Both the position numbers and the translations under genes were made by a program. Below the pieces are notes generated by a model. It was not told the DNA's origin. It was given only the letters and a program-made list of their open reading frames with translations, and did no database searches. A stretch of 64,000 nt of DNA from Escherichia coli (GTDB taxonomy: Bacteria > Pseudomonadota > Gammaproteobacteria > Enterobacterales > Enterobacteriaceae). Of this stretch, positions 3,017-56,200 are shown in pieces (position 1 is the first letter of the stretch; each line of letters starts with the position of its first letter). The DNA is taken from assembly GCF_001677475.2 (NCBI RefSeq), contig NZ_CP015229.1; one strand, 5' to 3'.

Positions 3017-3453
3017 TTCGGGAAGCGCAACGTTCAGAACTCCCCGCGATCCTCGAACTGTGGCTGGAAAGTACAACCTGGGGGCATCCCTTTATAAAAG
3101 CGAATTACTGGCGTGATTGCATTCCGCTGGTGCGGGATGCGTATCTTGCCAATGCGCAAAACTGGGTCTGGGAAGAAGACGGTAAGCTTCTCGGTTTTGT
3201 CAGCATTATGGAAGGCCGATTTCTGGCAGCAATGTTTGTCGCACCGAAGGCCGTCAGACGCGGTATTGGTAAGGCGCTGATGCAATATGTGCAGCAGCGC
3301 CATCCCCATCTGATGCTGGAGGTTTATCAAAAAAATCAACCGGCGATAGATTTTTACCATGCGCAGGGTTTTCACATTGTCGATTGCGCATGGCAGGATG
3401 AAACCCAACTACCCACCTGGATTATGAGCTGGCCGGTGGATCAAACGCTGTAA
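3013..3453 (+). CDS. yiaC: GNAT-family N-acetyltransferase YiaC
   Basis: 146-aa ORF recognised as YiaC; start overlaps the tag stop by 4 nt (ATGA), suggesting translational coupling. Confidence 0.85.
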
Positions 3454-9809: not shown

Positions 9810-9962
9810 TTACTCTTTTAAATTGCAGGCTAAAAATGCCGCCAGCTCATAACTCCCCTGTTTAATATGCAATTCACACAGTGAATCTCTTATCATCCAG
9901 GTGAAAAATAAAAGCGTGAAACAAATCACTATTAAAGAAAGCAATCTATATTTCTGCGGCAT
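9810..9962 (-). CDS. hokA: Hok-family type I toxin (small membrane peptide), HokA-like
   Basis: 50-aa product MPQKYRLLSLIVICFTLLFFTWMIRDSLCELHIKQGSYELAAFLACNLKE: single transmembrane helix plus conserved Cys, characteristic of Hok/Gef peptides. The same frame extends upstream to an ATG at 10022 (70 codons). No IS element interrupts the locus. Confidence 0.8.
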   Translation of the reverse strand: MPQKYRLLSLIVICFTLLFFTWMIRDSLCELHIKQGSYELAAFLACNLKE

Positions 9963-10284
9963 TCCCAGCCCCCTGTGTTGATTTCCAACGAGTAAGAGGC
10001 TAACCTTATGGTGTCTATGCATAGAGGGGCCTCACTTTGATTTATAGTCAGGTGGGGCTTTTCTCTGTCTGCCTTTCGGTGAATACCTGAGACAAACAGT
10101 CTCAAGCACCCGTGGCTATTCTAGCTTAATAAGTTTGTTTCTTCTCCTTGATATAATCCTAAAAAAATCTCATAAAATTAATATATGAGATAATCTTTAT
10201 TCAGCAGAAGATTATTAAAGGTTGCTGTATTATTTAGCGATAAAAAAAGCCTGCCAGATGGCAGGCTTTTTAATAACGGCGTTA

Positions 10285-12354
10285 TTACTGCAACAGCGAA
10301 ATATCCGCAACGCGCAGGAACAGTTCGCGCAGTTTCTCCAGCATGGTCAGACGGTTGATACGCAATTCTTTGTCATCAACCATGACCATCACTTTATCGA
10401 AGAAGGCATCGACCGGTTCACGCAGCTCTGCCAGTTCGACCAGCGCATCCTGGTAACGACCTTCCGCAAAGTACGGCTCCAGCTTGTCACGTAGCACCAC
10501 AACCTGCATCGCCAGTTTAATTTCTTCCGGCTCTTTCAGAGTAGAGGCATTCACGCGATCGCTCAGCACTTCGTCAGATTTCGCCAGGATGTTAGATACA
10601 CGTTTGTTCGCCGCCGCCAGTGCTGCAGCTGCTTCCAGGGTACGGAAGTGCGATACCGCTTTCATGCGGGCATCGAAATCAGCCGGACGAGTCGGACGAC
10701 GCGCCAGTACCGCCTGGATGGTGTCAACGGTATAACCTTCGTCCTGATACCAGGCGCGGAAGCGACCGAGCATAAAGTCGATAACATCATCAACTACGTT
10801 GGCATTAGTCAGCTTATCGCCATACAGACGCACCGCTTCTTCGGTCAGCGTTTGCAGATCAAGGTTGAGGTTCTTCTCAACGATAATTCGCAGCACGCCA
10901 AGTGCGGCACGACGCAGCGCAAACGGGTCTTTGTCGCCTTTCGGATGCTGACCGATACCGAAGATACCCGCCAGAGTATCCATCTTATCAGCAATCGCCA
11001 GCGCACAAGCTACCGGGTTGGACGGCAGGTCATCACCGGCAAAGCGCGGCTGATACTGCTCATTCAGCGCGACGGCTACGTCTTCCGCTTCGCCATCGTG
11101 ACGCGCGTAGTGCATCCCCATAACGCCTTGGGTGTCGGTGAACTCGAAGACCATGTTGGTCATCAGGTCACACTTAGACAGCAGGCCCGCACGGGTTGCG
11201 TGGTTAACGTCAGCGCCAATCTGTTCGGCGATCCAGCCAGCCAGCGCCTGGATGCGGTCAGTCTTGTCACGCAGCGTACCCAGCTGTTGCTGGAACAGCA
11301 CGGTTTGCAGGCGCGGCAGGTTATCTTCCAGACGTTTTTTACGGTCGGTGTTGAAGAAGAACTCGGCATCAGCCAGACGTGGACGAACGACTTTCTCGTT
11401 ACCAGAGATAATTTGCTGCGGATCTTTCGATTCGATGTTGGCAACGAAGATAAAGTTCGGCAGCAGTTTGCCGTCGTTCGCATACACCGGGAAGTATTTC
11501 TGGTCACCTTTCATGGTGTAAACCAGCGCTTCAGACGGCACCGCGAGGAATTTCTCTTCGAATTTCGCGGTCAGAACGACCGGCCACTCCACCAGCGAAG
11601 CGACTTCTTCCAGCAGGCTTTCGCTTAAGTCAGCGTTACCGCCAATCTTACGCGCTGCTTCTTCGGCATCGGCTTTAATCTTCGCCTTACGTTCTTCGTA
11701 ATCGGCGATGACTTTCCCGCGCTCACGCAGAATTTCTGGATATTGATCGGCGTTGTCGATAGTGAATTCCGGCTCGCCCATAAAGCGGTGGCCGCGAATC
11801 ACGCGATCGGACTGAATGCCCAGAATGGTTGCCGGAATGACTTTGTCGCCCAGCAGCAGGGTCACGGTGTGCACCGGACGCACGAAGTGCACGTCGCTTG
11901 CACCCCAGCGCATCAGTTTCGGGATCGGCAGTTTCGCCAGCGAAGTCGCAACCATATTCGGCAGCAGTGCTTCAGTGCTTTCGCCCTTCACATGGGCGCG
12001 ATACAGCAGCCATTCGCCTTTATCGGTAGTCAGACGCTCAGCCTGGTCAACGGTAATACCGCAACCACGCGCCCAACCTTCTGCCGCTTTGCTCGGTTTG
12101 CCTTCAGCGTCGAACGCCTGGGCAATCGCCGGGCCGCGTTTTTCGATTTCACGATCCGGTTGCGCTTCCGCCAGGTTAGCTACTTTCAGCGCCAGACGAC
12201 GCGGAGCAGCAAACCATTGAACGGTGCCGTGTGCGAGGCCAGCGTTATCCAGCTCCGCAGTAAAGTTCGCAGCAAAGGACTCAGCCAGGCTGCGCAGTGC
12301 TTTTGGTGGCAGCTCTTCAGTGCCGATTTCCACCAGAAAAGTTTTCTCAGACAT
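10285..12354 (-). CDS. glyS: Glycine--tRNA ligase beta subunit
   Basis: 689-aa ORF recognised as GlyS ([23 protein letters not shown]...); immediately downstream of glyQ on the same strand. Confidence 0.97.
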
Positions 12355-17408: not shown

Positions 17409-18731
17409 TTATTTGTCGAACAGATAATGGTTTACCAGATTTTCCAGTTGTTCCTGGCGACCACTCTGATGCACCGGAGACAAATTGTGTTCCTGAGCAT
17501 ATTTGGCTAAATCTGCCAGTGACATTTGGCCTTTCAGGATTTGCTGGCCTAATTCGCTATTCCAGCCGGAATAACGCTGCGCGATGCGTTTATCCAGCTC
17601 GCCATCTTCAATCATGCGTGCTGCAATTTTCAGCGCCAACGCCATCGTATCCATCGCGCCGATATGACCGTAAAACAGATCATATTTATCAGTACTTTGA
17701 CGACGTACTTTGGCATCGAAGTTCAGACCACCGGTGGTGAAACCGCCTGCTTTGAGAATTTCATACATCACCAGCGCATTCTCTTCCACACTGTTCGGGA
17801 ACTGGTCGGTGTCCCAGCCCAGTTGCGCATCGCCACGGTTGGCGTCGACAGAACCGAACAGGCCAAGCGCAATGGCGGTGGCTATTTCATGATGGAAAGA
17901 GTGACCTGCCAGCGTCGCGTGGTTAGCTTCAATGTTCAGTTTAATCTCTTTTTCCAGACCAAACTGTTTCAGGAAGCCATAGACCGTCGCGGCATCGTAA
18001 TCATATTGATGTTTGGTCGGTTCTTGCGGTTTCGGTTCGATAAGCAACGTGCCCTGGAAACCGATTTTATGTTTATGCTCAACCACCATCTGCATAAAGC
18101 GGCCCAGCTGTTCACGCTCCTGACGCAAGTCGGTATTTAACAGCGTTTCGTAACCTTCACGACCGCCCCACAGGACATAGTTTTCACCGCCCAATTTATG
18201 GGTTGCTTCCATCGCTGTAACAACTTGCGTTGCCGCCCAACTGAAGACTTCAGGATCTGGGTTCGTCGCCGCACCCGCGCCATAGCGAGGGTTTGTAAAG
18301 CAGTTAGCGGTTCCCCACAGCAGCTTCACGCCGCTCTCTTCTTGCTTGCCTGCCAGGACATCAACCATTTGCGCAAAATTATTGATGTACTCTTTTAACG
18401 ACGCGCCCTCAGGGGAAACATCCACATCGTGGAAGCAATAAAATGGCACATGTAACTTGTGGAAAAACTCAAATGCGACATCTGCTTTACGCTTCGCCAA
18501 CGCCAGTGCCTCACCAGGCTGCTGCCACGGACGATTAAACGCCCCCACACCAAACATGTCCGCTCCGTTCCAGCAGAAGGTGTGCCAGTAGCAGGCGGCA
18601 AAACGCAAGTGCTCTTCCATACGCTTACCCAACACCAGTTCGTCGGGATTGTAGTGACGGAATGCTAACGGGTTTGAGGATTTTGAGCCTTCATAACGAA
18701 CGCGATCGAGCTGGTCAAAATAGGCTTGCAT
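17409..18731 (-). CDS. xylA: Xylose isomerase
   Basis: Start at ATG 18731 ([28 protein letters not shown]...), 440 aa, recognised as XylA. Confidence 0.97.
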
Positions 18732-19096
18732 ATTGAACTCCATAATAAGGTAATGCCGCGGGTAATGGATGATGTCCTAATATTGGGCACTCCCTTTCAG
18801 TTGCTCAATTATGTTATTTCACACTGCTATTGAGATAATTCACAAGTGTGCGCTCGCTCGCAAAATAAAATGGGATGATGAAACTGGGTAATTCCTCGAA
18901 GAGAAAAATGCAATAAGTACAATTGCGCAACAAAAGTAAGATCTCTGTCATAAATCAAGAAATAAACCAAAAATCGTAATCGAAAGATAAAAATCTGTAA
19001 TTGTTTTCCCCTGTTTAGTTGCTAAAAATTGGTTACGTTTATCGCGGTGATTGTTACTTATTAAAGCTGTCCTCTAACTACAGAAGGCCCTACACC
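18732..19096. promoter_or_regulatory. Divergent xylAB / xylFGH control region (expected XylR and CRP operators)
   Basis: 365-bp AT-rich intergenic region between divergent operons; contains CRP-half-site-like TTCACAC and TTCACAAG (about 18815..18850). Individual operators were not mapped. Confidence 0.55.
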
Positions 19097-20089
19097 ATGA
19101 AAATAAAGAACATTCTACTCACCCTTTGCACCTCACTTCTGCTTACCAACGTTGCGGCACACGCCAAAGAAGTCAAAATAGGTATGGCGATTGATGATCT
19201 CCGTCTTGAACGCTGGCAAAAAGATCGAGATATTTTTGTGAAAAAGGCAGAATCTCTCGGCGCGAAAGTATTTGTACAGTCTGCAAATGGCAATGAAGAA
19301 ACACAAATGTCGCAGATTGAAAACATGATTAACCGGGGTGTCGATGTTCTTGTCATTATTCCGTATAACGGTCAGGTATTAAGTAACGTTGTAAAAGAAG
19401 CCAAACAAGAAGGTATTAAAGTATTAGCTTACGACCGTATGATTAACGATGCGGATATCGATTTTTATATTTCTTTCGATAACGAAAAAGTCGGTGAACT
19501 GCAGGCAAAAGCCCTGGTCGATATTGTTCCGCAAGGTAATTACTTCCTGATGGGCGGCTCGCCGGTAGATAACAACGCCAAGCTGTTCCGCGCCGGACAA
19601 ATGAAAGTGTTAAAACCTTATGTTGATTCCGGAAAAATTAAAGTCGTTGGTGACCAATGGGTTGATGGCTGGTTACCGGAAAACGCATTGAAAATTATGG
19701 AAAACGCGCTAACCGCCAATAATAACAAAATTGATGCTGTAGTTGCCTCAAACGATGCCACCGCAGGTGGGGCAATTCAGGCATTAAGCGCGCAAGGTTT
19801 ATCAGGGAAAGTAGCAATTTCCGGCCAGGATGCGGATCTCGCAGGTATTAAACGTATTGCTGCCGGTACGCAAACTATGACGGTGTATAAACCTATTACA
19901 TTGTTGGCAAATACTGCCGCAGAAATTGCCGTTGAGTTGGGCAATGGTCAGGAACCAAAAGCAGATACCACACTGAATAATGGTCTGAAAGATGTTCCCT
20001 CCCGCCTGCTGACACCGATCGATGTGAATAAAAACAACATCAAAGATACGGTAGTTAAAGACGGATTCCACAAAGAGAGCGAGCTGTAA
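19097..20089 (+). CDS. xylF: D-xylose ABC transporter periplasmic binding protein
   Basis: Start at internal ATG 19097, 330 aa, signal peptide MKIKNILLTLCTSLLLTNVAAHA; periplasmic sugar-binding fold pattern. Confidence 0.95.
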   Translation: MKIKNILLTLCTSLLLTNVAAHAKEVKIGMAIDDLRLERWQKDRDIFVKKAESLGAKVFVQSANGNEETQMSQIENMINRGVDVLVIIPYNGQVLSNVVKEAKQEGIKVLAYDRMINDADIDFYISFDNEKVGELQAKALVDIVPQGNYFLMGGSPVDNNAKLFRAGQMKVLKPYVDSGKIKVVGDQWVDGWLPENALKIMENALTANNNKIDAVVASNDATAGGAIQALSAQGLSGKVAISGQDADLAGIKRIAAGTQTMTVYKPITLLANTAAEIAVELGNGQEPKADTTLNNGLKDVPSRLLTPIDVNKNNIKDTVVKDGFHKESEL

Positions 20090-20166
20090 GCGTTACGCCC
20101 CGGCGAGGAGCGGGGGCGTGATTTCTCTCCATGCCGCGTGAATTAATTGGCTTAGGTGGAGTCGTT

Positions 20167-21708
20167 ATGCCTTATCTACTTGAAATGAAGAACATTACCA
20201 AAACCTTCGGCAGTGTGAAGGCGATTGATAACGTCAGCTTGCGGTTGAATGCTGGCGAAATCGTCTCACTCTGTGGGGAAAATGGGTCTGGTAAATCAAC
20301 GCTGATGAAAGTGCTGTGTGGTATTTATCCCCATGGCTCCTACGAAGGCGAAATTATTTTTGCGGGAGAAGAGATTCAGGCGAGTCACATCCGCGATACC
20401 GAACGCAAAGGTATCGCCATCATTCACCAGGAATTGGCGCTGGTGAAAGAATTGACCGTGCTGGAAAATATCTTCCTGGGTAACGAAATAACCCATAATG
20501 GTATTATGGATTATGATCTGATGACGCTACGCTGTCAGAAGCTGCTCGCACAGGTCAGTTTATCTATTTCACCAGATACCCGCGTTGGCGATTTAGGGCT
20601 TGGGCAACAACAACTGGTTGAAATTGCCAAGGCACTTAATAAACAGGTGCGTTTGTTAATTCTCGATGAGCCGACAGCCTCATTAACTGAGCAGGAAACG
20701 TCGGTTTTACTGGATATTATTCGCGATCTACAACAGCACGGTATCGCCTGTATTTATATTTCGCATAAACTTAACGAAGTCAAAGCGATTTCCGATACGA
20801 TTTGCGTTATTCGCGACGGTCAGCACATTGGTACGCGTGATGCTGCCGGAATGAGTGAAGACGATATTATCACCATGATGGTCGGGCGAGAGTTAACCGC
20901 GCTTTACCCAAATGAACCACATACCACCGGAGATGAAATATTACGTATTGAACATCTGACGGCATGGCATCCGGTTAATCGTCATATTAAACGAGTTAAT
21001 GATGTCTCGTTTTCCCTGAAACGTGGCGAAATACTGGGTATTGCCGGACTCGTTGGTGCCGGACGTACCGAGACTATTCAGTGCCTGTTTGGCGTGTGGC
21101 CCGGAAAATGGGAAGGAAAAATTTATATTGATGGCAAACAGGTAGATATTCGTAACTGTCAGCAAGCCATCGCCCAGGGGATTGCGATGGTACCCGAAGA
21201 CAGAAAGCGCGACGGCATCGTTCCGGTAATGGCGGTTGGTAAAAATATTACCCTCGCCGCACTCAATAAATTTACCGGTGGCATTAGCCAGCTTGATGAC
21301 GCGGCAGAGCAAAAATGTATTCTGGAATCAATCCAGCAACTCAAAGTTAAAACGTCGTCCCCCGACCTTGCTATTGGACGTTTGAGCGGCGGCAATCAGC
21401 AAAAAGCGATCCTCGCTCGCTGTCTGTTACTTAACCCGCGTATTCTCATTCTTGATGAACCCACCAGGGGTATCGATATTGGCGCGAAATACGAGATCTA
21501 CAAATTAATTAACCAACTCGTCCAGCAGGGCATTGCCGTTATTGTCATCTCTTCTGAATTACCTGAAGTGCTCGGCCTTAGCGATCGTGTACTGGTGATG
21601 CATGAAGGGAAACTAAAAGCCAACCTGATAAATCATAACCTGACTCAGGAGCAGGTGATGGAAGCCGCATTGAGGAGCGAGCATCATGTCGAAAAGCAAT
21701 CCGTCTGA
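20167..21708 (+). CDS. xylG: D-xylose ABC transporter ATP-binding protein (tandem ABC domains)
   Basis: Start at internal ATG 20167, 513 aa; Walker [10 protein letters not shown]; ABC signature-like LSGGNQQK and a second nucleotide-binding domain. Confidence 0.95.
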
Positions 21709-22867
21709 AGTGAAATTGGCCGTACCGACATCCGGTGGCTTTTCCGGGCTGAAGTCACTGAATTTGCAGGTCTTCGTGATGATTGCAGCTATCATCGCAA
21801 TCATGCTGTTCTTCACCTGGACCACCGATGGTGCCTACTTAAGCGCCCGTAACGTCTCCAACCTGTTACGCCAGACCGCGATTACCGGCATCCTCGCAGT
21901 AGGAATGGTGTTCGTCATAATTTCTGCTGAAATCGACCTTTCCGTCGGCTCAATGATGGGGCTATTAGGTGGCGTCGCGGCGATTTGTGACGTCTGGCTA
22001 GGCTGGCCTTTGCCACTTACCATCATTGTGACTTTGATTCTGGGACTGCTTCTCGGTGCCTGGAACGGATGGTGGGTAGCGTACCGCAAAGTCCCGTCAT
22101 TTATTGTCACCCTCGCGGGCATGTTGGCATTTCGCGGCATACTCATTGGCATCACCAACGGCACGACTGTATCCCCCACCAGCGCCGCGATGTCACAAAT
22201 TGGGCAAAGCTATCTACCTGCCAGCACCGGCTTCATCATTGGCGCGCTTGGCTTAATGGCTTTTGTTGGCTGGCAATGGCGCGGAAGAATGCGCCGTCAG
22301 GCTTTGGGTTTGCAGTCTCCGGCCTCTACCGCAGTTGTCGGTCGCCAGGCATTAACGGCGATTATCGTCTTAGGCGCAATCTGGCTTTTGAATGATTACC
22401 GTGGCGTTCCCACTCCTGTTCTGCTGCTGACGTTGCTGTTACTCGGCGGAATGTTTATGGCAACGCGGACAGCATTTGGACGACGCATTTATGCCATCGG
22501 CGGCAATCTGGAAGCAGCACGTCTCTCCGGGATTAACGTTGAACGCACCAAACTTGCCGTATTCGCTATTAACGGATTAATGGTCGCTATCGCCGGATTA
22601 ATCCTCAGTTCTCGACTTGGCGCTGGTTCACCTTCTGCGGGGAATATCGCCGAGCTGGACGCAATTGCAGCATGCGTGATTGGCGGCACCAGTCTGGCAG
22701 GCGGCGTCGGGAGCGTGGCTGGAGCGGTAATGGGGGCATTCATCATGGCTTCACTGGATAACGGTATGAGTATGATGGATGTACCGACCTTCTGGCAGTA
22801 TATCGTTAAAGGTGCGATTCTGTTGCTGGCAGTATGGATGGACTCCGCAACCAAACGCCGTTCTTGA
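21686..22867 (+). CDS. xylH: D-xylose ABC transporter permease
   Basis: 393-aa polytopic membrane protein; start overlaps the xylG 3' end by 23 nt. Confidence 0.95.
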
Positions 22868-22944
22868 TTTTGATAAAAATTTTCTCAAAGCCGGTAACGT
22901 ATTACCGGTGTTGAGTTTTTGCATGATTCAGCAGGAAAAGAACC

Positions 22945-24123
22945 ATGTTTACTAAACGTCACCGCATCACATTACTGTTCAATGCCAATAAAGCCTATGA
23001 CCGGCAGGTAGTAGAAGGCGTAGGAGAATATTTACAGGCGTCACAATCGGAATGGGATATTTTCATTGAAGAAGATTTCCGCGCCCGCATTGATAAAATC
23101 AAGGACTGGTTAGGAGATGGCGTCATTGCCGACTTCGACGACAAACAAATCGAGCAAGCGCTGGCTGATGTCGACGTCCCCATTGTTGGGGTTGGCGGCT
23201 CGTATCACCTTGCAGAAAGTTACCCACCCGTTCATTACATTGCCACCGATAACTATGCGCTGGTTGAAAGCGCATTTTTGCATTTAAAAGAGAAAGGTGT
23301 TAACCGCTTTGCATTTTATGGTCTTCCAGAATCAAGCGGCAAACGTTGGGCCACTGAACGCGAATATGCATTTCGCCAGCTTGTCGCCGAAGAAAAGTAT
23401 CGCGGAGTGGTTTATCAGGGGTTAGAAACCGCGCCAGAAAACTGGCAACACGCGCAAAATCGGCTGGCAGACTGGCTACAAACGCTGCCACCGCAAACCG
23501 GGATTATTGCCGTTACTGACGCCCGGGCGCGGCATATTCTGCAAGTATGTGAACATCTACATATTCCCGTACCGGAAAAATTATGTGTGATTGGCATCGA
23601 TAACGAAGAACTGACCCGCTATCTGTCGCGTGTCGCCCTTTCTTCGGTCGCTCAGGGCGCGCGGCAAATGGGCTATCAGGCGGCAAAACTGTTGCATCGA
23701 TTATTAGATAAAGAAGAAATGCCGCTACAGCGGATTTTGGTCCCACCAGTTCGCGTCATTGAACGGCGCTCAACAGATTATCGCTCGCTGACCGATCCCG
23801 CCGTTATTCAGGCCATGCATTACATTCGCAATCACGCCTGTAAAGGGATTAAAGTGGATCAGGTACTCGATGCGGTCGGGATCTCGCGCTCCAATCTTGA
23901 GAAGCGTTTTAAAGAAGAGGTGGGTGAAACCATCCATGCCATGATTCATGCCGAGAAGCTGGAGAAAGCGCGCAGTCTGCTGATTTCAACCACCTTGTCG
24001 ATCAATGAGATATCGCAAATGTGCGGTTATCCATCGCTGCAATATTTCTACTCTGTTTTTAAAAAAGCATATGACACGACGCCAAAAGAGTATCGCGATG
24101 TAAATAGCGAGGTCATGTTGTAG
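22945..24123 (+). CDS. xylR: Xylose operon activator (AraC/XylS family with sugar-binding N-domain)
   Basis: 392 aa; C-terminal AraC-type HTH (...EISQMCGYPSLQYFYSVFKKAYDTTPKEYR). Confidence 0.95.
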   Translation: MFTKRHRITLLFNANKAYDRQVVEGVGEYLQASQSEWDIFIEEDFRARIDKIKDWLGDGVIADFDDKQIEQALADVDVPIVGVGGSYHLAESYPPVHYIATDNYALVESAFLHLKEKGVNRFAFYGLPESSGKRWATEREYAFRQLVAEEKYRGVVYQGLETAPENWQHAQNRLADWLQTLPPQTGIIAVTDARARHILQVCEHLHIPVPEKLCVIGIDNEELTRYLSRVALSSVAQGARQMGYQAAKLLHRLLDKEEMPLQRILVPPVRVIERRSTDYRSLTDPAVIQAMHYIRNHACKGIKVDQVLDAVGISRSNLEKRFKEEVGETIHAMIHAEKLEKARSLLISTTLSINEISQMCGYPSLQYFYSVFKKAYDTTPKEYRDVNSEVML

Positions 24124-24167
24124 CGATGATGAGAATTGTCGGCGTCACATCAGGTAACGCTGCATGG

Positions 24168-24203
<36 letters not shown>

Positions 24204-24267
24204 CCGCCAGGCATGATAAAACGCACCAACAACGCTTCAGGCTCGTAGCTCAACTGCCTGAGACAAA

Positions 24268-24305
24268 GTAAAAAGCCTTATCCGACTGACAAGTCGGATA
24301 AGGCT
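24268..24305 (-). terminator. Rho-independent terminator of bax
   Basis: Perfect 13-bp inverted repeat GCCTTATCCGACT / AGTCGGATAAGGC at 24275..24305, followed on the minus strand by CTTTTTAC. Confidence 0.7.
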
Positions 24306-24318
24306 CAAGGAAATGCAA

Positions 24319-25143
24319 TTACATATGCGCCGCGATTAACCGTTGGTTATCCTGGTACATTGCGAACAGGTAGTTGTTATAACTCTTCCCTTTGGTCGAG
24401 TAGCCCTTCAGCTTGTGAATCATCGCTGTAGCAGTCACTTCCTGATCCGCTTTACGCAGCTGTGCACGCGATTTACGGAACGAAGAGTAAGCCGGGTGCG
24501 TATTCAGGTTAGTGACATAGGCGCTCACCGATTCTTTGACAGAACTAAACTGTGAGTACCCTTTCACTTTACCCGGCGCATTAGTACAACGTCCTTTCAT
24601 GCATTTCATGCCGAACAGGTTGTTGTTGTTGCGCGCCAGCTTCGACGTTCCCCAACCGCTTTCTGCTGCAGCCATCGTCGCCACCATACTAGTGGGGATA
24701 ATGTCTACGCGTTCAAGCAAGGTATTCCACGGGATTTTTCGCGTATTACCAGACCACTTCACCTTGTAGCGTTTGGCGATGTCTTTCAGACGCGCACGCT
24801 CAGCAGGTGACCATTGGCCCTGATACTGTTTTGAAATGAGCCAGTTACGTTCCGCAGTAATGGCCGCATTTTGGCTGGTAATGTAAGGCATTACGGTCCG
24901 GAGAAACGCTTTTTTCCTTGGTGTTCCGGAAGGGTATTTTCGCAAATCAGGAAGTGAACTACTCTTTGCACTATTGCGAGAATACTCTTGTTTACTGCTT
25001 ACCTGTTTATTACTAGCTTTAGTTAAGTGGGACTTTTGACTCGCTGTTGTTGTGTGCGTCTTCGCTAACACCTCACTCGAAAACACCAGAGTGAGTAACA
25101 TAAGAATCATCGCCCCATATCGTCGTATGGGAGTCAAAATCAT
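24319..25143 (-). CDS. bax: Bax protein (putative peptidoglycan glucosaminidase-like)
   Basis: 274 aa recognised as Bax; N-terminal signal sequence (MILMLLTLVFSSEVLA); position between xylR and malS as in K-12. Confidence 0.85.
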   Translation of the reverse strand: MILTPIRRYGAMILMLLTLVFSSEVLAKTHTTTASQKSHLTKASNKQVSSKQEYSRNSAKSSSLPDLRKYPSGTPRKKAFLRTVMPYITSQNAAITAERNWLISKQYQGQWSPAERARLKDIAKRYKVKWSGNTRKIPWNTLLERVDIIPTSMVATMAAAESGWGTSKLARNNNNLFGMKCMKGRCTNAPGKVKGYSQFSSVKESVSAYVTNLNTHPAYSSFRKSRAQLRKADQEVTATAMIHKLKGYSTKGKSYNNYLFAMYQDNQRLIAAHM

Positions 25144-29792: not shown

Positions 29793-30608
29793 CTACGAAT
29801 TGATATGTTCCTTGCTGTAACGCCGCTTCCACGCTGCTGGCGTTAAACCGGTGTGTTTGCGAAAAATCTGCCGGAAATAGCCAACGTCATTAAACCCGCA
29901 CAACGCCGCCACTTCCGTGAGCGATCGCGCTTCGCTAATTAACAGCTTTTCGGCTTCGCGCACCCGCTGGCGATGGATTGCTTCTGTTAACGTCAGATGA
30001 AACACCCGCCGGTAGACGCGCCCAAGATAATCGGCATTGCAGTACAGCTCGCGGGCCAGAAGCGCCGTAGAAAGCGGGCGATGATATTGCGTGCGGATCA
30101 GTTTCTGCGCTTTCCAGGCAAGGGTGGTGCCTGCGCCATCGGCCTGTTCATCAAGACGCGCGTCACGGGTGAGCTGCTGCAAAATGAGCAGCACAATAAA
30201 CTCCAGCGCCGGAGTGCGTTGATGCTTTTCCTGTTCGCTTAAGAACTGGCGAAACAGGGCCACCAGCGCCTGCGGATCGACAACCTTCGTTTGTTGCGGC
30301 ACGCTAAGATGAGTAAGCCAGCGAGGGTCGTTGTCCGGCGCTTTAACCTCAAAATGCAGCCAGTAAAATTTGAGATCGGCGGGAAAATCCTCCACCCCAA
30401 CATGTTGTCGGTTCGGCCAGAGTAATAAACTCTCTCCCGCATCGACCAGAAATATCCGTTCTTCTTCCTGAATCGTTAATCGACCTTTTTCGACAAAGAT
30501 AATTTCCCATGACTCCAGCCGCCTTGCAGGATGCCTCCCTACGCCACGGGAAATAAATAATCCACCATTTTGCACTTTAATCGGTAACGTCATGGATAAT
30601 TCGAGCAT
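29793..30608 (-). CDS. AraC/XylS-family transcriptional regulator (cupin-like N-domain plus C-terminal HTH)
   Basis: 271 aa; N-terminal effector-binding region; C-terminal AraC HTH (...LTEVAALCGFNDVGYFRQIFRKHTGLTPAAWKRR). Divergent from the downstream transporter gene. Start could be ATG 30608 or 30593. Confidence 0.8.
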   Translation of the reverse strand: MLELSMTLPIKVQNGGLFISRGVGRHPARRLESWEIIFVEKGRLTIQEEERIFLVDAGESLLLWPNRQHVGVEDFPADLKFYWLHFEVKAPDNDPRWLTHLSVPQQTKVVDPQALVALFRQFLSEQEKHQRTPALEFIVLLILQQLTRDARLDEQADGAGTTLAWKAQKLIRTQYHRPLSTALLARELYCNADYLGRVYRRVFHLTLTEAIHRQRVREAEKLLISEARSLTEVAALCGFNDVGYFRQIFRKHTGLTPAAWKRRYSKEHINS

Positions 30609-30833
30609 TGATATGTAATTTCCCGCTTATTCATTAATGATTAAACACATTACCTTTTGATTATTAATCAAAAATATTAATTTCACCTGATCCATTTCAC
30701 ACTTTTAAATTCAGGTCGGAATCGTCACCTTTTTTTACTCTTTTCTCGCCTTGTTGATATTCCCGTTCACGGCAGAATTAATCAGGTCATTTCAATAAAA
30801 CTAAAAATTGCTCCCTATTCACGAGGAATATCT

Positions 30834-32234
30834 ATGACCTCTACACCGATTACTACCGCTGATATCGCTAAAGGTAAAATTGACGATGCGTTATCTGTAC
30901 GGGAAAAAATAGGCTACGGCCTGGGTGACGCAGGCGGCACCGTAATAACTTGCCTGATCATGAATTTTCTCACCTTTTTCTACACCGACGTTTTTGGATT
31001 AACTCCGGCGCTGGTTGGCACGCTGTTTATTGCACTGCGCGTGTTTGATGCCATCTCCGACCCGGTGATGGGCGTCATTGCCGACCGGACGCAAAGTCGC
31101 TGGGGGCGCTTTCGCCCGTGGCAGCTATGGATTGCCATTCCCATCGGCATTATCGGCATCCTGACGTTCACCGTGCCAGATGCCAGCATGGGAGTAAAAA
31201 TCGCCTGGGCGTTCGGTACTTACCTGCTCCTTTCAGTCGGTTATACCGCCATCAACGTACCGTACTGCGCGCTGATCAACACCATGACCACCCGCCACAA
31301 TGAAGTGATCTCCTGCCAGTCCTGGCGATTCGTTCTCTGTGGCGTAGCGGGATTTCTGGTTTCGGTAGGCTTACCGTGGATGGTAGATCTCTTCGGTCAG
31401 GGTAATGCCGCGCGCGGCTATCAATTGGGCGTCGGCGTGCTGTGCGCCATTGCCGTGGTGATGTTCCTGTGCTGTTTTTTCTGGGTTCGTGAACGGGTGC
31501 CACTCTCCACAATGGGGAAATTTACCCTGCGCGAACATCTTGCCGGGCTGCGGAACAACGACCAACTGCTGCTGATGCTGGTCATGTCTTTCCTGCTGAT
31601 TAACGTCTTTAACATTCGCGGCGGTGGGTATATGTACTTCATTACCTACGTCTTACAAGGCAGTACGGGCTACACGTCGCTGTTCTTCACCATGGTCACC
31701 TTCGCCTCCATTATCGGCTCGGTGATTGTCAGCCCGTTAACGCGGCGTTTCGATACCGTCAAAATTTACTACTACACCAACCTGCTCCTCGCTGCGCTGG
31801 CGGTGTTGATGTGGTTCCTGCCCTCCGGCCCGGCTTATCAAACGCTGTGGCTGGCGGTGATCCTCGGTAATGGCGTAATTCTTGGCTTCACATTGCCACT
31901 GCACTTCTCATTGATGGCCTTTGCCGATGACTACGGCGAGTGGAAAACCCGCGTACGTTCTTCCGGCATGAACTTCGCCTTCAATCTGTTTTTCATCAAG
32001 CTGGCCTGGGCCTCCAGCGCCGGGATCATCAGCCTGCTGTTTATTTTTGTCGCCTACCAGCCTGGCGTGGAAAACCAGACCGCCAGTTCGCTTGGCGGGA
32101 TCGCGGCGATGGAAACATTACTGCCTGCGCTATTCCACCTGCTGCTGGCAGGGGCGATCCGCTTTTGCAAACTCAATAATCCTATGATGTCACGCATAGC
32201 TACCGACCTGCGTCAGCGTCATGTACAGCCTTAA
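30834..32234 (+). CDS. GPH-family (glycoside-pentoside-hexuronide) cation symporter, MelB/YicJ-like
   Basis: 466 aa, about 12 transmembrane helices; GPH hallmark [25 protein letters not shown]; GAGGA Shine-Dalgarno 8 nt upstream of the ATG. Confidence 0.85.
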
Positions 32235-32244
32235 GGAGCACAAG

Positions 32245-34215
32245 ATGAACATTTCGGAAGTCGATCTGCATAAACTGACGGTCAGCGATCCGTTCCTCGG
32301 TCAGTACCAACAACTGGTCCGCGACGTGGTGATTCCTTATCAGTGGGATGCCTTGAACGATCGTATCCCAGAAGCGGAACCCAGCCATGCGATTGAAAAC
32401 TTTCGCATTGCCGCCGGACTTCAGGAGGGTGAATTTTACGGGATGGTGTTTCAGGACAGCGACGTCGCCAAATGGCTGGAAGCGGTAGCCTGGTCGCTGT
32501 GCCAGAAGCCGGACGCCGAACTGGAAAAAACCGCCGACGAGGTAATCGAACTGATCGCCTCCGCCCAATGCGAAGACGGCTATCTCAATACTTACTTTAC
32601 GGTAAAAGTACCCGAAGAACGCTGGAGCAATCTGGCGGAGTGTCATGAACTTTACTGCGCCGGTCATCTGATTGAAGCCGGAGTCGCCTTCTTCCAGGCC
32701 ACGGGCAAGCGGCGCTTGCTGGAAGTGGTTTGCCGTCTGGCCGATCATATCGACAGCGTATTTGGTCCAGATGAAAGTAAGTTACACGGTTACCCTGGTC
32801 ACCCGGAAATTGAACTGGCACTGATGCGTCTGTATGAAGTGACCGAAGAGCCGCGCTACCTGGCACTGACGAACTATTTTGTCGAACAGCGTGGTGCGCA
32901 ACCGCACTATTACGACCAGGAATATGAAAAGCGCGGGCAGACCTCGCACTGGCACACCTACGGCCCGGCGTGGATGGTGAAAGATAAAGCCTACAGCCAG
33001 GCGCATTTGCCCATCGCACAGCAACAAACCGCCATCGGACATGCAGTACGCTTTGTCTATCTGATGACCGGCGTCGCGCATCTCGCGCGTTTAAGTCACG
33101 ATGACAGCAAGCGTCAGGACTGCCTGCGGCTGTGGAACAATATGGCCCAGCGTCAGTTATATATTACCGGCGGCATTGGCTCGCAAAGCAGCGGCGAAGC
33201 GTTCACTAGCGATTACGATCTGCCGAATGACACGGTATACGCTGAAAGTTGCGCCTCCATCGGCCTGATGATGTTTGCCCGACGAATGCTGGAAATGGAA
33301 GGCGACAGTCAATATGCCGATGTGATGGAGCGCGCACTGTACAACACCGTGCTCGGCGGCATGGCGCTGGATGGCAAACATTTCTTCTATGTGAATCCGC
33401 TGGAAGTACATCCAAAATCGCTGAAATTCAACCATATCTACGATCACGTTAAACCGATCCGCCAGCGTTGGTTTGGCTGCGCTTGTTGTCCGCCAAATAT
33501 CGCCCGCGTGCTGACCTCGATTGGTCATTATCTCTACACGCCGCGTGAAGATGCGTTGTATATCAACATATACGCAGGAAACAGCATGGAAGTGCCGGTA
33601 GAAAATGGCACGCTGCGCCTGCGGGTTAGCGGGAACTATCCGTGGCAGGAGCAGGTGACGATTGCGGTTGAATCGCCCCAGCCGGTACGTCATACGCTGG
33701 CTTTACGTCTGCCGGACTGGTGCACACAGCCGCAGATCATATTGAATGGGGAAGAGGTCGAGCAGGATATTCGTAAAGGGTATTTGCACATTACCCGCGA
33801 ATGGCAGGAGGGCGATACGCTGAATCTGACTTTGCCGATGCCGGTACGCCGCGTTTACGGTAACCCGCTGGTGCGTCACGTCGCCGGAAAAGTGGCGATT
33901 CAGCGCGGCCCGCTGGTGTATTGCCTGGAACAGGCCGACAACGGCGAGTCACTGCATAATCTGTGGCTGCCCACCGATGCGCCATTTACGACATTTGAAG
34001 GCAAGGGATTGTTTAGCCATAAGATCTTAATCCAGGCACCGGGTTACCGGTATGAACAGAGCAATCCAGAGCAGCAACCGCTGTGGCATTACGACAGCGC
34101 GCCAGCCAAACGCCAGACGCAAACTCTGACCTTTATCCCGTGGTTTAGCTGGGCCAACCGGGGTGAAGGCGAAATGCGGATCTGGGTGAATGAGGAAAAG
34201 CATTGCCATCCGTAG
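32245..34215 (+). CDS. Glycoside hydrolase family 127 (DUF1680, beta-L-arabinofuranosidase-like) protein
   Basis: Start at ATG 32245 (AAGGAG Shine-Dalgarno at 32233..32238), 656 aa. Motifs E-S-C (YAESCASIG) and C-A-C-C-P-P-N (WFGCACCPPNIARVL) match what I recall of the Zn/Cys catalytic centre of GH127 enzymes. Immediately follows the GPH symporter. Confidence 0.75.
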   Translation: MNISEVDLHKLTVSDPFLGQYQQLVRDVVIPYQWDALNDRIPEAEPSHAIENFRIAAGLQEGEFYGMVFQDSDVAKWLEAVAWSLCQKPDAELEKTADEVIELIASAQCEDGYLNTYFTVKVPEERWSNLAECHELYCAGHLIEAGVAFFQATGKRRLLEVVCRLADHIDSVFGPDESKLHGYPGHPEIELALMRLYEVTEEPRYLALTNYFVEQRGAQPHYYDQEYEKRGQTSHWHTYGPAWMVKDKAYSQAHLPIAQQQTAIGHAVRFVYLMTGVAHLARLSHDDSKRQDCLRLWNNMAQRQLYITGGIGSQSSGEAFTSDYDLPNDTVYAESCASIGLMMFARRMLEMEGDSQYADVMERALYNTVLGGMALDGKHFFYVNPLEVHPKSLKFNHIYDHVKPIRQRWFGCACCPPNIARVLTSIGHYLYTPREDALYINIYAGNSMEVPVENGTLRLRVSGNYPWQEQVTIAVESPQPVRHTLALRLPDWCTQPQIILNGEEVEQDIRKGYLHITREWQEGDTLNLTLPMPVRRVYGNPLVRHVAGKVAIQRGPLVYCLEQADNGESLHNLWLPTDAPFTTFEGKGLFSHKILIQAPGYRYEQSNPEQQPLWHYDSAPAKRQTQTLTFIPWFSWANRGEGEMRIWVNEEKHCHP

Positions 34216-44562: not shown

Positions 44563-45171
44563 TCAAGCCTTTGGCGGTTCGGTGCGAGCAAAACTTTCGC
44601 GGCTAAACAGGTTTTCGACCAGTTTGACTAAGTGTGGGCGGTCGACACACCAGCCTGGCGCAACGCGGCGGAAATTGAGATATCCGACGGCACAGGCAAT
44701 GGCGATAGTCGCCAGATTGACCGTATCGGTTTTGAGTGTGCCATCGACCAGATATCCTTCCAGCACATCCAGACTGCGGTTGATTTTCTCCCGCTGGCGT
44801 AACAATTCATCTTCAGACTGCTGCGCCGCCGGACGCGCCTGTTCGCGCACCGACACCAGCCCGGCATCCATAATACCGTCGGCCAGCGCCTCAATTTTAC
44901 GCACTCGCAACGACTCCAGCGGATCGCGCGGCAACATCGCCGGAGCGACATTCATTAATTCAATATATTCGGCAATGATCGGCGAATCAAACCAACATTC
45001 GCCCTCTTCGGTCACCAGCACCGGCACTTTCCCTAACGGGTTAAATTGCGCCACGCCGTTGTCCGCGTTATAGGGCAGCTCATTAATAAATTCGAAAGTT
45101 ATGCCCTTTTCTAACAACAGAATAGAAAGTTTGCGTACAAACGGGCTGGTGTAGCTACCGACGAGTTTCAT
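44563..45171 (-). CDS. yibF: Glutathione S-transferase-family protein YibF
   Basis: 202 aa; N-terminal thioredoxin-like GST domain ([28 protein letters not shown]). Confidence 0.88.
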
Positions 45172-45241
45172 GCCGAGTCCTTTGTGCGAGGAAAAATATC
45201 AGTATGGCTCAGGCTCGCGCAAAACACAGGTGACATAAGTC

Positions 45242-46378
45242 TCAATGATCCAAATAAAGATAATGCATCCAACTGGTCATTCTCAGCAGCACCTTCCGCA
45301 TCACCGAAACATGGCTGAAATGGTCGGAGTAAACTGCTACCTGGGCGTAAATGCCGTCGGGTAAGGCATCGATATCATCGTTGGGGTCCAGTTCAATGGT
45401 TCCCAGCACACCGTCCGTGCCGGGCACGACCGTTAATGATTGCAATACCCCCTGCGCCTGATAAGAACCGCCTGGCACGACAGGTAAAATACTGGTCAGT
45501 TTGCCGTGGAACACCTGCCCAGGTAGCGCGTTAAACACCACTTCCGCATCATCGCCGGGTTTCAGACGTAACAGCGAGTTCTGCCGAAATTGGGCGACAA
45601 TTTGCCGTTTTTGCTCGGGGATGAAAACCATCACCGGACGTAGCGGCAAGGCAGCTGCGTATGTACCTGGGCGGATCAGTACCTGAGTAACGTAGCCATT
45701 GCTTGGTGCGCGAATGACAGTCTGCTCAAGGTTATATTTTGCTTCAGTAAGTTGCGCTCTTAAGCTCACAATCTGCGACTGCTCGCCGTTAACCATACTG
45801 TCGAGCTGGCTCTGGATCTGCGCCTGCTCCGCCACCGAGCCTTTCACCAGCGCGTCCTGCGCGAGGAAGTTTTGCCGCGCATCGTCGATGTCACGTTCCG
45901 AGAACGGATTCACCGCCGCCTGGCTACCTTTCAGGTAACGTTGATAATTTTTAAACAGACGGTCGCGCTCCGCTGAAACCTGGGTGGTGTTGGCCTGCGC
46001 TTCAGTGAGCTGGGCGCGCAGCGTCTTTATATTATGCGTCGCCGTCATCAGGTCAGCCTGAAGTCTGTCAACTCGCGCCTGGTAACGAACCGGGTCGAGT
46101 TTAAAAAGCACCTCGCCCTTTTGAATAAGCTGATTATTCTTGTCAGTGACTTCAGTAACAATTCCCGTCACCTGTGGCGTGATGGGGATCGCTATCACTG
46201 CCTTTTGCGCGGTAAAAGTGTAAGGATGGTTGTAGTTCATCAATAAAATCAAACCACTCACCAGAAATACGCCTCCCAACGCCGCCGTCGCCAGCGTCCA
46301 CTGATTCACCGGAATGCGGAAGATTTTAAATACTGCCCATGCCAGCGCCACGTAAGTTAAAACAATTAACAGATCCAT
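45242..46378 (-). CDS. yibH: HlyD-family membrane-fusion-type protein YibH (paralog of YiaV)
   Basis: 378 aa; same architecture as yiaV; the N-terminal region and the last ~30 residues are near-identical to YiaV (differing at one position in the final 30, V/M). Confidence 0.85.
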
Positions 46379-52513: not shown

Positions 52514-53197
52514 ATGAAAGTGAATAAATTATTGATAAGCGTCCTGGCGGCTTCGACAATACTGATGCTGTCAGGTTGTGATTACGTCGAAAAAACGAAA
52601 GTCGTTGATGAACTCACAAAACAACAAGAAGAACAAAAGGCCAGAATTGATCAACTCGAAAAACGATTAGAACAAGAAACCAAAAAGACAAACACCATTG
52701 AAAAACAAAGCATTAGTCTGATAAACAGTACAAAGCTGCTGGCTCAGGTAGTGAAAGAGATTAAGCATCAGCAAGATACATTTGTCTTTACTGAATTTAA
52801 CCCCGATCAAACAAAATATTTCATTTTAAATAACGGTTCGGTAGGTATTGCCGGCAGGGTGTTATCTGTTGAAGCAATAGAAAATGGCAGTGTTATTCAT
52901 ATGTCATTGGCCAATTTATTAAGTGTTCCCGTATCAAATATTGGTTTTCATGCCACCTGGGGCGGTGAAAGACCGGGTGATCAAAAAGAATATGCCAAAT
53001 GGCAACAACTGCTATTTAGCACCAACATGAACTCCACGCTGAAATTATTACCAGGTCAATGGCAAGACATTAACTTGACGTTAAAAGGGGTGTCTCCCAA
53101 CAACCTGAAATACCTGAAGTTGGCTATTAATATGCAGAATATCAACTTCGACAACCTTCCACCTGCTGATAACCGGCAGAAAAAAAGCAAAAAATAA
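52514..53197 (+). CDS. Inner-membrane lipoprotein with coiled coil, SadB-like putative export helper for the downstream trimeric autotransporter
   Basis: 227 aa; signal peptide with lipobox LSGC followed by Asp at +2 (the inner-membrane retention signal); long coiled-coil (QQEEQKARIDQLEKRLEQETKK), then a beta-rich domain; Shine-Dalgarno AAGGA; AT-rich codon usage; 43 bp upstream of the adhesin gene on the same strand. Confidence 0.65.
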   Translation: MKVNKLLISVLAASTILMLSGCDYVEKTKVVDELTKQQEEQKARIDQLEKRLEQETKKTNTIEKQSISLINSTKLLAQVVKEIKHQQDTFVFTEFNPDQTKYFILNNGSVGIAGRVLSVEAIENGSVIHMSLANLLSVPVSNIGFHATWGGERPGDQKEYAKWQQLLFSTNMNSTLKLLPGQWQDINLTLKGVSPNNLKYLKLAINMQNINFDNLPPADNRQKKSKK

Positions 53198-53240: not shown

Positions 53241-56200
53241 ATGAACAAAATTTTTAAAGTTATCTGGAACCCTGCGACGGGAAGTTACAGCGTCGCCAGC
53301 GAAACGGCAAAAAGCCGTGGAAAGAAGAGCGGTCGCAGCAAGCTGTTAATTTCTGCGTTGGTTGCCGGTGGGTTGCTGTCGTCGTTCGGGGCGAGTGCTT
53401 CTGTCAGTCTTGATGGTGGTACATATTCTGATGGCACCGAACTTACTGATGCATGGATTGCTATTGGTAAAGGTGCGAAAGCTTCCTCTGTAGGCGGTAG
53501 CACAGCAAGTATTTCTATTGGGGTAAATGCAATCTCTGCTGCTGGGGCTACTGCAGTGGGTTATAACAGTAATGCTACTGGACAAAGTTCAGTATCAATG
53601 GGGCAGCTATCGAAAGCCACAGGGAGCAGGGGGGTTGCTATCGGCAGTGGAGCTAGTGCCATTGGCGACTATACAGTTGCATTAGCGGTTGGCTCCAGTG
53701 CTAGCGGTGAGAGTGCAGTGGCAATAGGTCAAGGTTCCGGAGCCAAAAATAAAGGTAGTGTTGCGTTAGGTAACAGAGCGTCATCATTAGGAGAAAAATC
53801 GGTAGCACTAGGGGTAGACAGTAAGGCCACTGGTGACGATAGCCTGGCATTAGGTAGAAACGCCTTGGGCAATAGCACAGGTTCCATTGCAATGGGTGCC
53901 GCAAGCGAAGCCAATGGATTATATAGTTTGGCATTAGGCGCAAGCAGCGTAGCTAACGCGGACAATACCGTTGCGCTCGGATATGGTGCCAATGCAGCCA
54001 AAGCTGGAGCAATGGCTTTCGGTCAGGCAGGAAAGGCAGATGGTGTAAATTCTATTGCGCTGGGTAATAAAAGTCAGTCAAGCGGCGAAAACAGTATTGT
54101 GCTTGGACAAGAAAGCTATGCTGGTAGTGAAAAAAGTATTGCGATTGGTAGCCTGTCCAACGTAACCGGTGTTAACTCCGTTGCTCTGGGCACAGAGTCT
54201 ACTGCCGTGGAAGATAATACTGTTTCAGTAGGTAACGACACGCTGCAGCGTAAAATTGTCCATATGGGAAAAGGCGATATTAGCAGTACCAGTACTGATG
54301 CCATCAATGGTTCACAGCTTTATGATATCAGTAAGTCAGTTGCAGACCGTCTGGGCGGCGGTGCCTCCGTGAGTACTGCCGGGGTTGTTAACGCCCCTAA
54401 CTACAAACTGCAAAGTGGTAACTTTAATAATGTTGGCGACGCATTAAAGGGTCTTGATGATAATACGTTGCAATGGGACTCGCTTAAAAAAGTCTACAGT
54501 GCAAAACACGGTTCCGATGCCACCAGCAAAATCACCAACGTTACGGCGGGTGAGCTGAACGCATCCAGTACCGACGCCGTTAACGGTTCTCAGTTGAAAA
54601 CCACTAACGACAATGTGGCAACCAACACCACTAATATCAGCAACCTGACCGGCGAAGTTGCTAACAACACCACCAATATCACTAACCTGACGAATGATGT
54701 TGCCGCCAACACCACCAGTATCACCAACCTGGCTGATACGGTGACTAACCTTGGTGAAGATGCGCTGAAATGGGATGACACCGCTGGCGTATTCACTGCT
54801 GCACACGGCACCGAAGCCACCAACAAAATCACCAATGTTACGGCAGGTGAGCTGACGGAGACCAGTACCGATGCGGTTAACGGTTCTCAGTTGAAAACCA
54901 CTAACGATAACGTGGCAACCAACACCACCAGTATCACCAACCTGACTGATACAGTGACTAACCTTGGTGCCGACGCGCTGGCATGGGATGACGCCTCAGG
55001 TGCATTCACCGCCAAACACGGCACCGAAGCCACCAACAAAATCACTAACGTTACGGCAGGTGAACTGACGGAGACCAGTACCGATGCCGTTAACGGTTCT
55101 CAGTTGAAAACCACTAACGATAACGTGGCAACCAACACCACCAATATCAGCAACCTGACCGGCGAAGTTGCTAACAACACCACCAACATCACTAACCTGA
55201 CGAATGATGTTGCCGCCAACACCACCAGTATCACCAACCTGGCTGATACGGTGACTAACCTTGGTGCCGACGCGCTGGCATGGGATGACGCCTCAGGTGC
55301 ATTCACCGCCAAACACGGCACCGAAGCCACCAACAAAATCACTAACGTTACGGCGGGTGAGCTGACGGAGACCAGTACTGATGCCGTTAACGGTTCTCAG
55401 TTAAAAACCACTAACGACAATGTGGCAACCAACACCACCAACATCACCAATCTGGCTGATACGGTGAACAACCTCGGTGAAGATGCGCTGAAATGGGATG
55501 ACGCCGCAAGCGCATTCACCGCTGCACACGGCACCGAAGCCACCAGCAAAATCACTAACGTCACCGCTGGAACAATCTCGTCTACCAGTACCGACGCTGT
55601 TAACGGTGGGCAACTCTTTAGCTTAAGTGATTCACTGGCAGACTATTTTGGCGGTAACGCCTCGGTTGATGAAAACGGTGTATTTACTGGCCCGTCCTAC
55701 ACCATCGGTAGCAACAGCTACGATAACGTAGGTGATGCGCTGGCGGCGATTAACACCTCCTTTAGCACTTCACTGGGCGACGCTCTGCTGTGGGATGAAA
55801 CGGCAAGTGCATTCAGCGCCGGCCACGGTGGCAATGCCAGCAAAATTACCAATGTCGCAAACGGTACTATTTCTGAAACCAGCACCGATGCCATCAATGG
55901 TGGGCAACTCTACGGTGTGAGCAACTCTGTTGTTGATGCCCTGGGCGGTGGCGCCGCAGTAAATGCTGACGGTAGCATCAGTGCGCCGACGTACTCCATT
56001 GCTGATACCGATTACAATAACGTCGGTGATGCTCTGGACGCGATCGACTCAACCCTGGATGATGCGCTGCTCTGGGACGCAACCGCCGGTGAAAATGGTG
56101 CGTTCAGCGCCAGCCGCGATGGCAAAGCCAGCGTAATCACTAATGTTGCTAATGGTGATATTTCTGAAACCAGTACTGATGCAATTAATGGTTCACAGTT

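Follow-up and report, generated by a model that had tools for sequence, protein, structure and literature searches.

Does the overlap between xylG and xylH, the genes for the ATP-binding protein and the permease of the D-xylose ABC transporter, reflect a genuine XylH start, and does it couple the translation of the two genes? The question is raised by a 64,000-nt stretch of Escherichia coli DNA (the window), in which xylH starts inside the 3′ end of xylG in a different reading frame. Our analyses make it very probable that this is the normal, annotated xylFGH(R) junction, with the initiation region of xylH placed inside the end of xylG and XylH synthesized mainly under the direction of a Shine-Dalgarno (SD) sequence. 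A literature search on the xylH overlap, its ribosome profiling and its start codon found no study of the xylG/xylH junction, and the TRAINSPOTTER N-terminomics supplements have no entry for xylG or xylH.

On the plus strand of the window, xylG occupies positions 20167-21708 (513 aa; TGA stop at 21706-21708; RefSeq b3567) and xylH positions 21686-22867 (393 aa; ATG at 21686-21688; RefSeq b3568). XylG matched the NCBIfam equivalog TIGR02633 over residues 4-502 with 965.5 bits (cut-off 723.65), and PRK13549 with 959.7 against a cut-off of 699. The best NCBIfam HMM for XylH was GguB, which scored under its cut-off (373 against 450), so that the name of the permease rests on orthology and synteny. 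The window's xylH aligned with K-12 xylH over its full length at 96.4% DNA identity, RefSeq names this BPD_transp_2-type permease XylH, and its homologs carry PF02653. Mapping of K-12 genes onto the window, together with RefSeq records, gave the operon order xylF (19097-20089), xylG, xylH and xylR (22945-24123), divergent from xylAB. No plus-strand promoter-like site was found in the 3′ part of xylG, so that xylH is transcribed as part of the xylFGH mRNA.

The same genes, start, stop, overlap and operon order are found in E. coli K-12 MG1655. RefSeq record NC_000913.3 places xylG at 3732201..3733742 and xylH at 3733720..3734901, with an identical 23-nt overlap (3733720-3733742), and a second RefSeq E. 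coli record annotates this overlap as well. Across the xyl region the window is approximately 98.4% identical to K-12, and over the 70 nt of the junction the two differ by one synonymous substitution (GAG instead of GAA at XylG Glu505). When complete E. coli genomes were searched with junction probes of 601 nt and 70 nt, each yielding a single match, the junction was present once in 5,415 of 5,426 genomes at 97-98.6% identity, and the matched region was annotated with both genes.

The xylH ATG is formed from the second base onward of the XylG His codon CAT, which puts xylH in the +1 frame relative to xylG. According to the sequence and the ORF list, the xylG frame stays open to the TGA at 21706-21708, and the shared stretch is 23 nt long. 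This dual-coding stretch (21686-21708, plus strand) encodes XylG residues 506-513 and the stop (HVEKQSV*, from the second base of the His codon) together with XylH residues 1-8 (MSKSNPSE). The two coding sequences lie on the same strand, share nucleotides in different frames and are supported at both ends; they form an overlapping gene pair. A prior sequence-only reading of the window had named both genes and described an out-of-frame overlap of 23 nt, and the sequence, the ORF list, the K-12 mapping and RefSeq all agree with it. It had also ranked this overlap above five shorter ones in the window, correctly, since those measure -4 (tag/yiaC), -4 (selA/selB), -1 (mtlD/mtlR), -1 (lldP/lldR) and -4 (lldR/lldD). 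Among the K-12 genes mapped in the window, xylG/xylH is the longest co-directional overlap. The window also holds a possible 14-nt ORF overlap at 32221-32234 and a convergent 32-nt overlap between yiaC and bisC, which that earlier list did not include.

What the shared nucleotides encode is confined to the non-conserved terminal tails of XylG and XylH. The last 11 of the 513 XylG residues fall outside the family-wide core in the TIGR02633 alignment; the corresponding tail codons (21676-21705, plus strand) are not conserved, lie beyond the end of the model at residue 502 and run past the point at which the closest non-overlapping ortholog, that of an uncultured relative (L092, described below), stops. 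The tail varies within the Enterobacteriaceae (E[HRKQP]HVE[KEN]...), and the tails of XylG paralogs are variable too. On the XylH side, homology to distant relatives and family models begins near residue 22-30 (approximately 27), and the N-terminus varies within the Enterobacteriaceae (MSK[SNT][NT][PSLQ]SE...). A search of the PDB with the XylH sequence gave no solved relative at E <= 1e-10, so no structural information was available for the N-terminal tail. Since the overlap involves only non-conserved tails, the cost of dual coding is kept low.

Conservation beyond E. coli was assessed with a genome scan that gave 80 species-representative loci, nearly all labelled Enterobacteriaceae, with XylH 86-99% identical; with the window they make 81 sequences. 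The overlap was 23 nt in 78 of the 80 loci and 14 nt in the other two, both Buttiauxella with an earlier TAA. The sequence-only reading had proposed conservation in other enterobacteria as a check, and the outcome was positive. The alignment of the 81 sequences contained no indels across the junction. Three blocks were invariant: AGGAG at -13 to -9, ATGTCGAA at 0 to +7 and TCTGA at +18 to +22; they include positions that are synonymous in one frame yet constrained by the other. The T of the xylG TGA falls at a synonymous site of xylH and is nonetheless present in all 81 sequences, and this invariance shows selection on the position of the stop. The distance between start and stop could therefore matter, although the need to avoid a longer XylG tail would account for the invariance just as well. 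Since the junction is ungapped, is conserved in 81 sequences and carries nucleotide constraints explicable only by the reading of both frames, the overlap is not a chance artefact of ORF calling. It is an old and stable feature of enterobacterial xyl operons.

With this in mind, we considered whether XylH might in fact begin downstream, at the GTG of codon 9 (21710) or at Met32, with no functional overlap. When an overlap exceeds a few nucleotides, the start codon has sometimes been called wrongly; the window does contain a GTG at codon 9 (21710-21712, plus strand), which is the only nearby downstream alternative; and homology across the family does not extend to the first ~26 residues of XylH. 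Against these points stands the conservation of the annotated start itself. The ATG is preceded by the SD sequence GAGGAG (21672-21677, plus strand; core AGGAG at 21673-21677), which lies 8 nt before it within the XylG codons Leu-Arg-Ser (ttG AGG AGc); both the ATG and the AGGAG at this spacing are invariant in the 81 sequences. XylG Arg503 is encoded by the rare codon AGG in 81/81, whereas in the xylH genes of the same species only 13 of 1,479 Arg codons are AGG, and Ser504 is always AGC or AGT. The fixation of this rare codon is direct evidence of nucleotide-level selection on the SD sequence. The same ATG and SD are also present in Yersinia.

Other potential starts are not maintained in this way. 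An in-frame TGA (21671-21673, plus strand) closes the xylH frame four codons upstream of the ATG, and a stop is found there in 80 of the 81 sequences, so that no start further upstream is possible. Downstream, the GTG at codon 9 is not conserved: a start-type codon occupies that position in 34/81 species only, and in 14/81 codons 2-31 contain no ATG, GTG or TTG at all. Ahead of the first transmembrane segment (TM1), no start codon other than the annotated ATG is conserved. The next conserved Met of XylH is codon 32, which by inspection falls within a hydrophobic stretch read as the putative first membrane helix. Codons 9-26, which immediately follow the xylG stop, behave as coding sequence, with mean column entropies of 1.07, 0.55 and 1.58 at positions 1, 2 and 3, no stops and no frameshifting indels. 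In a word-indexed protein search, whose matches were all close and Enterobacteriaceae-like (87-99% identity, one carrying an Aeromonas name), every XylH variant began MSKSNPSE. xylH is absent from Table S3 of INRI-seq, which lists non-annotated initiation sites in full. A downstream XylH start was rejected on the invariant SD-ATG, the lack of a conserved alternative and the coding character of codons 9-26; we regard it as very improbable, and the annotated xylH start as almost certainly correct.

A second alternative that would do away with a separate permease start is a programmed +1 frameshift within the overlap, joining XylG and XylH into one ATPase-permease polypeptide. Such fused ABC proteins exist in nature, the xylH frame is indeed +1 relative to that of xylG, and the overlap closes with UGA. 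The prfB frameshift also occurs at UGA, with an SD sequence only a few nucleotides from the stop; at the xyl junction the SD sequence is ~30 nt upstream of the stop, unlike that of prfB. By inspection, the P-site codon GUC before the stop cannot re-pair in the +1 frame (UCU), and 21686-21708 contains no slippery X XXY YYZ heptamer. The canonical, independent xylH start is strongly conserved, a gap separates xylG and xylH in many lineages, and no Rfam frameshift element was found at the junction. We rejected the fusion on the combination of no slippery site, no re-pairing before the UGA and an SD sequence ~30 nt from the stop, and give it a practically negligible probability.

Intermediate and distant junctions were taken from representative-library matches with contig look-ups and from plasmid records; one locus (L089), a long-read assembly riddled with frameshifts, was left out. 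Two fragmentary contigs (L090 and L091) whose XylH starts MSKNTSSE (XylH identity 81%) share the spacing of -23. In Yersinia frederiksenii (XylH identity 84%) the AGGAG, the 8-nt spacer and the ATG are the same, and XylG reads past the ATG to stop at a TAA after 14 nt (spacing -14). In the uncultured relative L092, which has xylF-G-H-R context (XylH identity 77%), XylG is 503 aa long and ends ...ALKE*, with a TAA directly after the homologous AAGGAG; the xylH ATG follows 3 nt after the stop (spacing +3), and XylH lacks the first ~18 N-terminal residues. In the E. coli xylG, an equivalent layout, with the stop placed just behind the SD sequence, would read AGGAGTAA. Spacing was +4 in Vibrio cyclitrophicus (XylH identity 69%), -4 in both a metagenomic relative (L085, 57%) and Burkholderia sp. 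(52%), and +34 in Neorhizobium sp. (52%). Three further metagenomic relatives had spacings of -14 (L093, 45%), +13 (L088, 45%) and +2 (L094, 46%).

Gene order and tight packing are thus the same in other lineages, whereas the spacing differs from that of E. coli. Based upon these comparisons, the conserved feature is tight packing, with the ribosome-binding site (RBS) of the permease located at the 3′ terminus of the ATPase gene or within it. The length of the overlap is lineage-specific, and 23 nt is where the first stop in the xylG frame falls in the Enterobacteriaceae. The most economical history would be one in which the xylG stop shifted, in either direction, relative to a pre-existing SD-ATG.

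The sequence-only reading had gone further and held that the overlap implies coupled translation of the two genes. Some coupling is plausible, since both genes lie on one transcript and a terminating ribosome would be 20 nt from an SD-flanked ATG. However, coupling is not a consequence of the overlap alone at a stop-to-start distance of d = -23, with an SD sequence that is strong and accessible and with no structure sequestering the RBS. The predicted duplex with the anti-SD was stronger for xylH (-8.5 kcal/mol) than for xylG (-5.9) or xylR (-4.3), and the mean unpaired probability of the xylH RBS was 0.46-0.50 (about 0.47) in an accessibility calculation. A strong and accessible SD sequence would allow translation to start without translation of the gene upstream. 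The fold of the junction as a single sequence was no better than that of shuffled sequences (MFE z = 0.16), the consensus fold of 13 species was weak (-9.5 kcal/mol) with 0 covarying pairs, and scanning 18700-24400 against Rfam with a permissive E-value gave no hit at the junction. Fold, accessibility and consensus fold therefore gave no stable RBS-sequestering structure, and coupling by RNA unfolding has no visible basis here.

Related sugar ABC importers pair one fused double-ATPase subunit with two permease subunits, a ratio that would favor an independent, stronger xylH start. This ratio bears on the possibility of obligate coupling, in which a ribosome or 30S subunit ends at the xylG TGA and moves back ~20 nt to the SD-flanked ATG, so that permease synthesis is tied to that of the ATPase; strict 1:1 reinitiation would not supply one ATPase for two permeases. 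Several observations are in keeping with obligate coupling. The two overlapping genes run in the same direction and specify subunits of a single complex, an SD sequence beside the restart codon favors capture of a post-termination ribosome, and xylH has no plus-strand promoter-like site of its own that we could find. The ATPase-permease spacing of -23 to +34 across lineages fits a general pressure for adjacent cistrons, and models of back-scanning and reinitiation have been discussed for E. coli (PMC12548453).

Published measurements bear directly on the distance involved. In reporter studies, coupling is most efficient between -4 and +3 nt (Brown & Wade review, PMC12548453); lengthening an overlap harms coupling more than adding spacing does, and in a systematic series there was none at -25 nt, although the same review notes that sequence context alters coupling. 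With synthetic reporters, Tian & Salis (PMC4538824) obtained a k_reinitiation of ~0.0072 for d = 0 to 25 and of 0.022 at d = -4, and past d = -10 a loss of 0.0004 for each further nt. Extrapolation of their curve would put k_reinitiation at about 0.002 for d = -23. This distance lies outside the spacing typical of termination-reinitiation (-4 to about +3), and both sources (PMC12548453, PMC4538824) describe reinitiation that declines with overlap length, to nil at -25 nt. Gene pairs with short overlaps (ATGA, -4; TGATG or TAATG, -1) are co-directional and often encode subunits of one complex (PMC12548453, PMC6728339, PMC10666635). In those canonical pairs the start and stop codons themselves overlap and termination-reinitiation is efficient, whereas at the xyl junction 20 nt separate the xylH start from the stop codon downstream of it. 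Given the distance, the strong and accessible SD sequence, the absence of inhibitory structure from the junction and the subunit ratio, we consider obligate coupling unlikely.

Taken together, these observations favor a junction at which XylH is made mostly by SD-directed initiation on the xylFGH mRNA. The xylH initiation region (AGGAG, 8-nt spacer, ATG) sits within the last codons of xylG. As XylG has no stop before the xylH ATG, its dispensable tail runs seven more codons to the TGA, and this gives rise to the 23-nt overlap. The length of the overlap follows the position of the stop: 23 nt in the Enterobacteriaceae, 14 nt in Yersinia and the two Buttiauxella, and small gaps or a 4-nt overlap farther out. 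Ribosomes finishing xylG may keep the xylH site unfolded while transiently occluding it, and a minor share of xylH starts may come from reinitiation after termination 20 nt downstream. How much de novo initiation contributes relative to reinitiation is inferred, as is the origin of the overlap by a shift of the stop.

The fixed geometry, with the SD sequence inside xylG and the start 20 nt before an invariant stop, could also be a selected device that sets the ratio of the two proteins. Ribosomes finishing xylG would then by turns block the xylH start and pass on to it, and the output of XylH relative to XylG would be fixed, at 2:1 for example, across induction levels. All that speaks for such a device is that the stop position does not vary, and this can also be put down to dual coding and to the need to avoid a longer XylG tail. 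The junction does not give the impression of special tuning, and we regard a ratio-setting role as distinctly improbable. If true, it would be a distinct mode of coupling through long overlaps, shared with alsA/alsC.

In practical terms, the analysis confirms the reference xylH start as right, and the junction has little import beyond annotation quality. The ribosome-binding site of xylH would be lost if the 3′ end of xylG were recoded or truncated, especially at the Arg-Ser codons AGG AGC. Separating xylG from xylH would require ~40 nt to be duplicated, which is relevant to the engineering of xylose uptake.

Overlapping and tightly packed genes in operons are textbook material, and the xylG/xylH overlap is an ordinary operon junction that the reference annotation already contains. 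Its length was compared with other junctions in ~125 kb of K-12 annotation, a sample biased towards paralogous transporters. The paralogous ATPase and permease genes are separated by gaps in rbsA/C (+4), araG/H (+14), mglA/C (+15), ytfR/T (+10) and yphE/D (+24), and the lsrA/C junction is -7. Further overlaps in this sample were otsB/otsA (26 nt) and ytfT/yjfF (14 nt). According to the Brown & Wade review (PMC12548453), short overlaps predominate, with <30 bp shared in more than 80% of overlapping pairs. An overlap of 23 nt is thus in the tail of the length distribution, yet unremarkable. The K-12 pair alsA/alsC, of the D-allose ABC transporter, resembles xylG/xylH in having the ATPase gene followed by the permease gene with a 22-nt out-of-frame overlap. 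Like the SD sequence of xylH inside xylG, a GAGGAG lies inside alsA, 8 nt upstream of the alsC ATG. The alsC SD sequence is, however, formed by different, non-homologous ATPase codons (the Glu-Glu of ...EEEIM...), which indicates that the arrangement arose independently in the two transporters.

The 77-nt spacer between xylF and xylG contains a GC-rich hairpin, ACGCCCCGG...CGGGGGCGT (window 20092-20122), with a predicted folding energy of -23.1 kcal/mol and a z-score of -1.1. One possible role for this hairpin is partial termination or stabilisation of the transcript, which would favour production of the binding protein relative to that of the membrane components. Further along, the xylH-xylR gap, also 77 nt, carries a terminator-like hairpin followed by a T-run (22890-22919). 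Directly 3' of xylR, at 24125-24200, both strands match the Rfam family naRNA4 with 43.7 bits, below the gathering score of 59.5, and we take this sub-threshold match to be a probable REP-type palindromic element. The annotated xylG start is the ATG at 20167, but the reading frame continues without a stop for another 12 codons in the 5' direction (20131-20166), with a further ATG at 20131. For K-12 (MG1655, NC_000913.3), INRI-seq lists an initiation signal at a GTG that is out of frame with xylG and lies 11 nt 5' of the annotated start.

Of the 5,415 complete E. coli genomes that gave a hit with the 70-nt junction spanning the xylG/xylH overlap, not one is identical to the window over that stretch. 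The XylG Glu505 codon (21681) is GAG in the window, whereas it is GAA in the aligned E. coli loci (K-12, L001 and L003). Similarity to K-12 is lower for xylH (21686-22867; 96.4%) than for its neighbours xylG (98.4%) and xylR (98.8%).

Mapping of K-12 genes onto the window showed that IS150 (insJK), which adjoins hokA in K-12, and the rhsA-yibA-yibG-yibV cluster, located between yibF and yibH in K-12, are both absent from the window; the respective sites are ~9962-10285 and ~45171-45242. In the place occupied in K-12 by the yiaK-sgbE operon and the 3' part of plaR, the window has an accessory segment (29793-34215). Its minus strand encodes an AraC-type regulator (29793-30608), and its plus strand encodes an MFS_2 sugar transporter (30834-32234) and a GH127 beta-L-arabinofuranosidase (32221-34215). 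The transporter and GH127 ORFs overlap by 14 nt in the ORF listing, with start codons as predicted. A second segment, ~6.3 kb between yibL and lldP, is missing from K-12 and includes a gene for a YadA-type trimeric autotransporter adhesin of 1,554 aa (53241-57905, plus strand) with an ESPR signal, head and stalk repeats and a membrane anchor. Just 5' of this gene lies a 227-aa ORF (52514-53197) for which there was no Pfam match.

Within the window, yiaC on the plus strand and bisC on the minus strand converge, and their 3' ends overlap by 32 nt (3422-3453). This overlap, which is also annotated in K-12, is longer than that of xylG/xylH, but it involves opposite strands. Among the K-12 loci examined for paralogs, other long co-directional overlaps occur at otsB/otsA (26 nt; L096, 1588-1613), at ytfT/yjfF (14 nt; L099, 5084-5097) and at alsA/alsC (22 nt; L098, 1449-1470), where a GAGGAG precedes the ATG by 8 nt.
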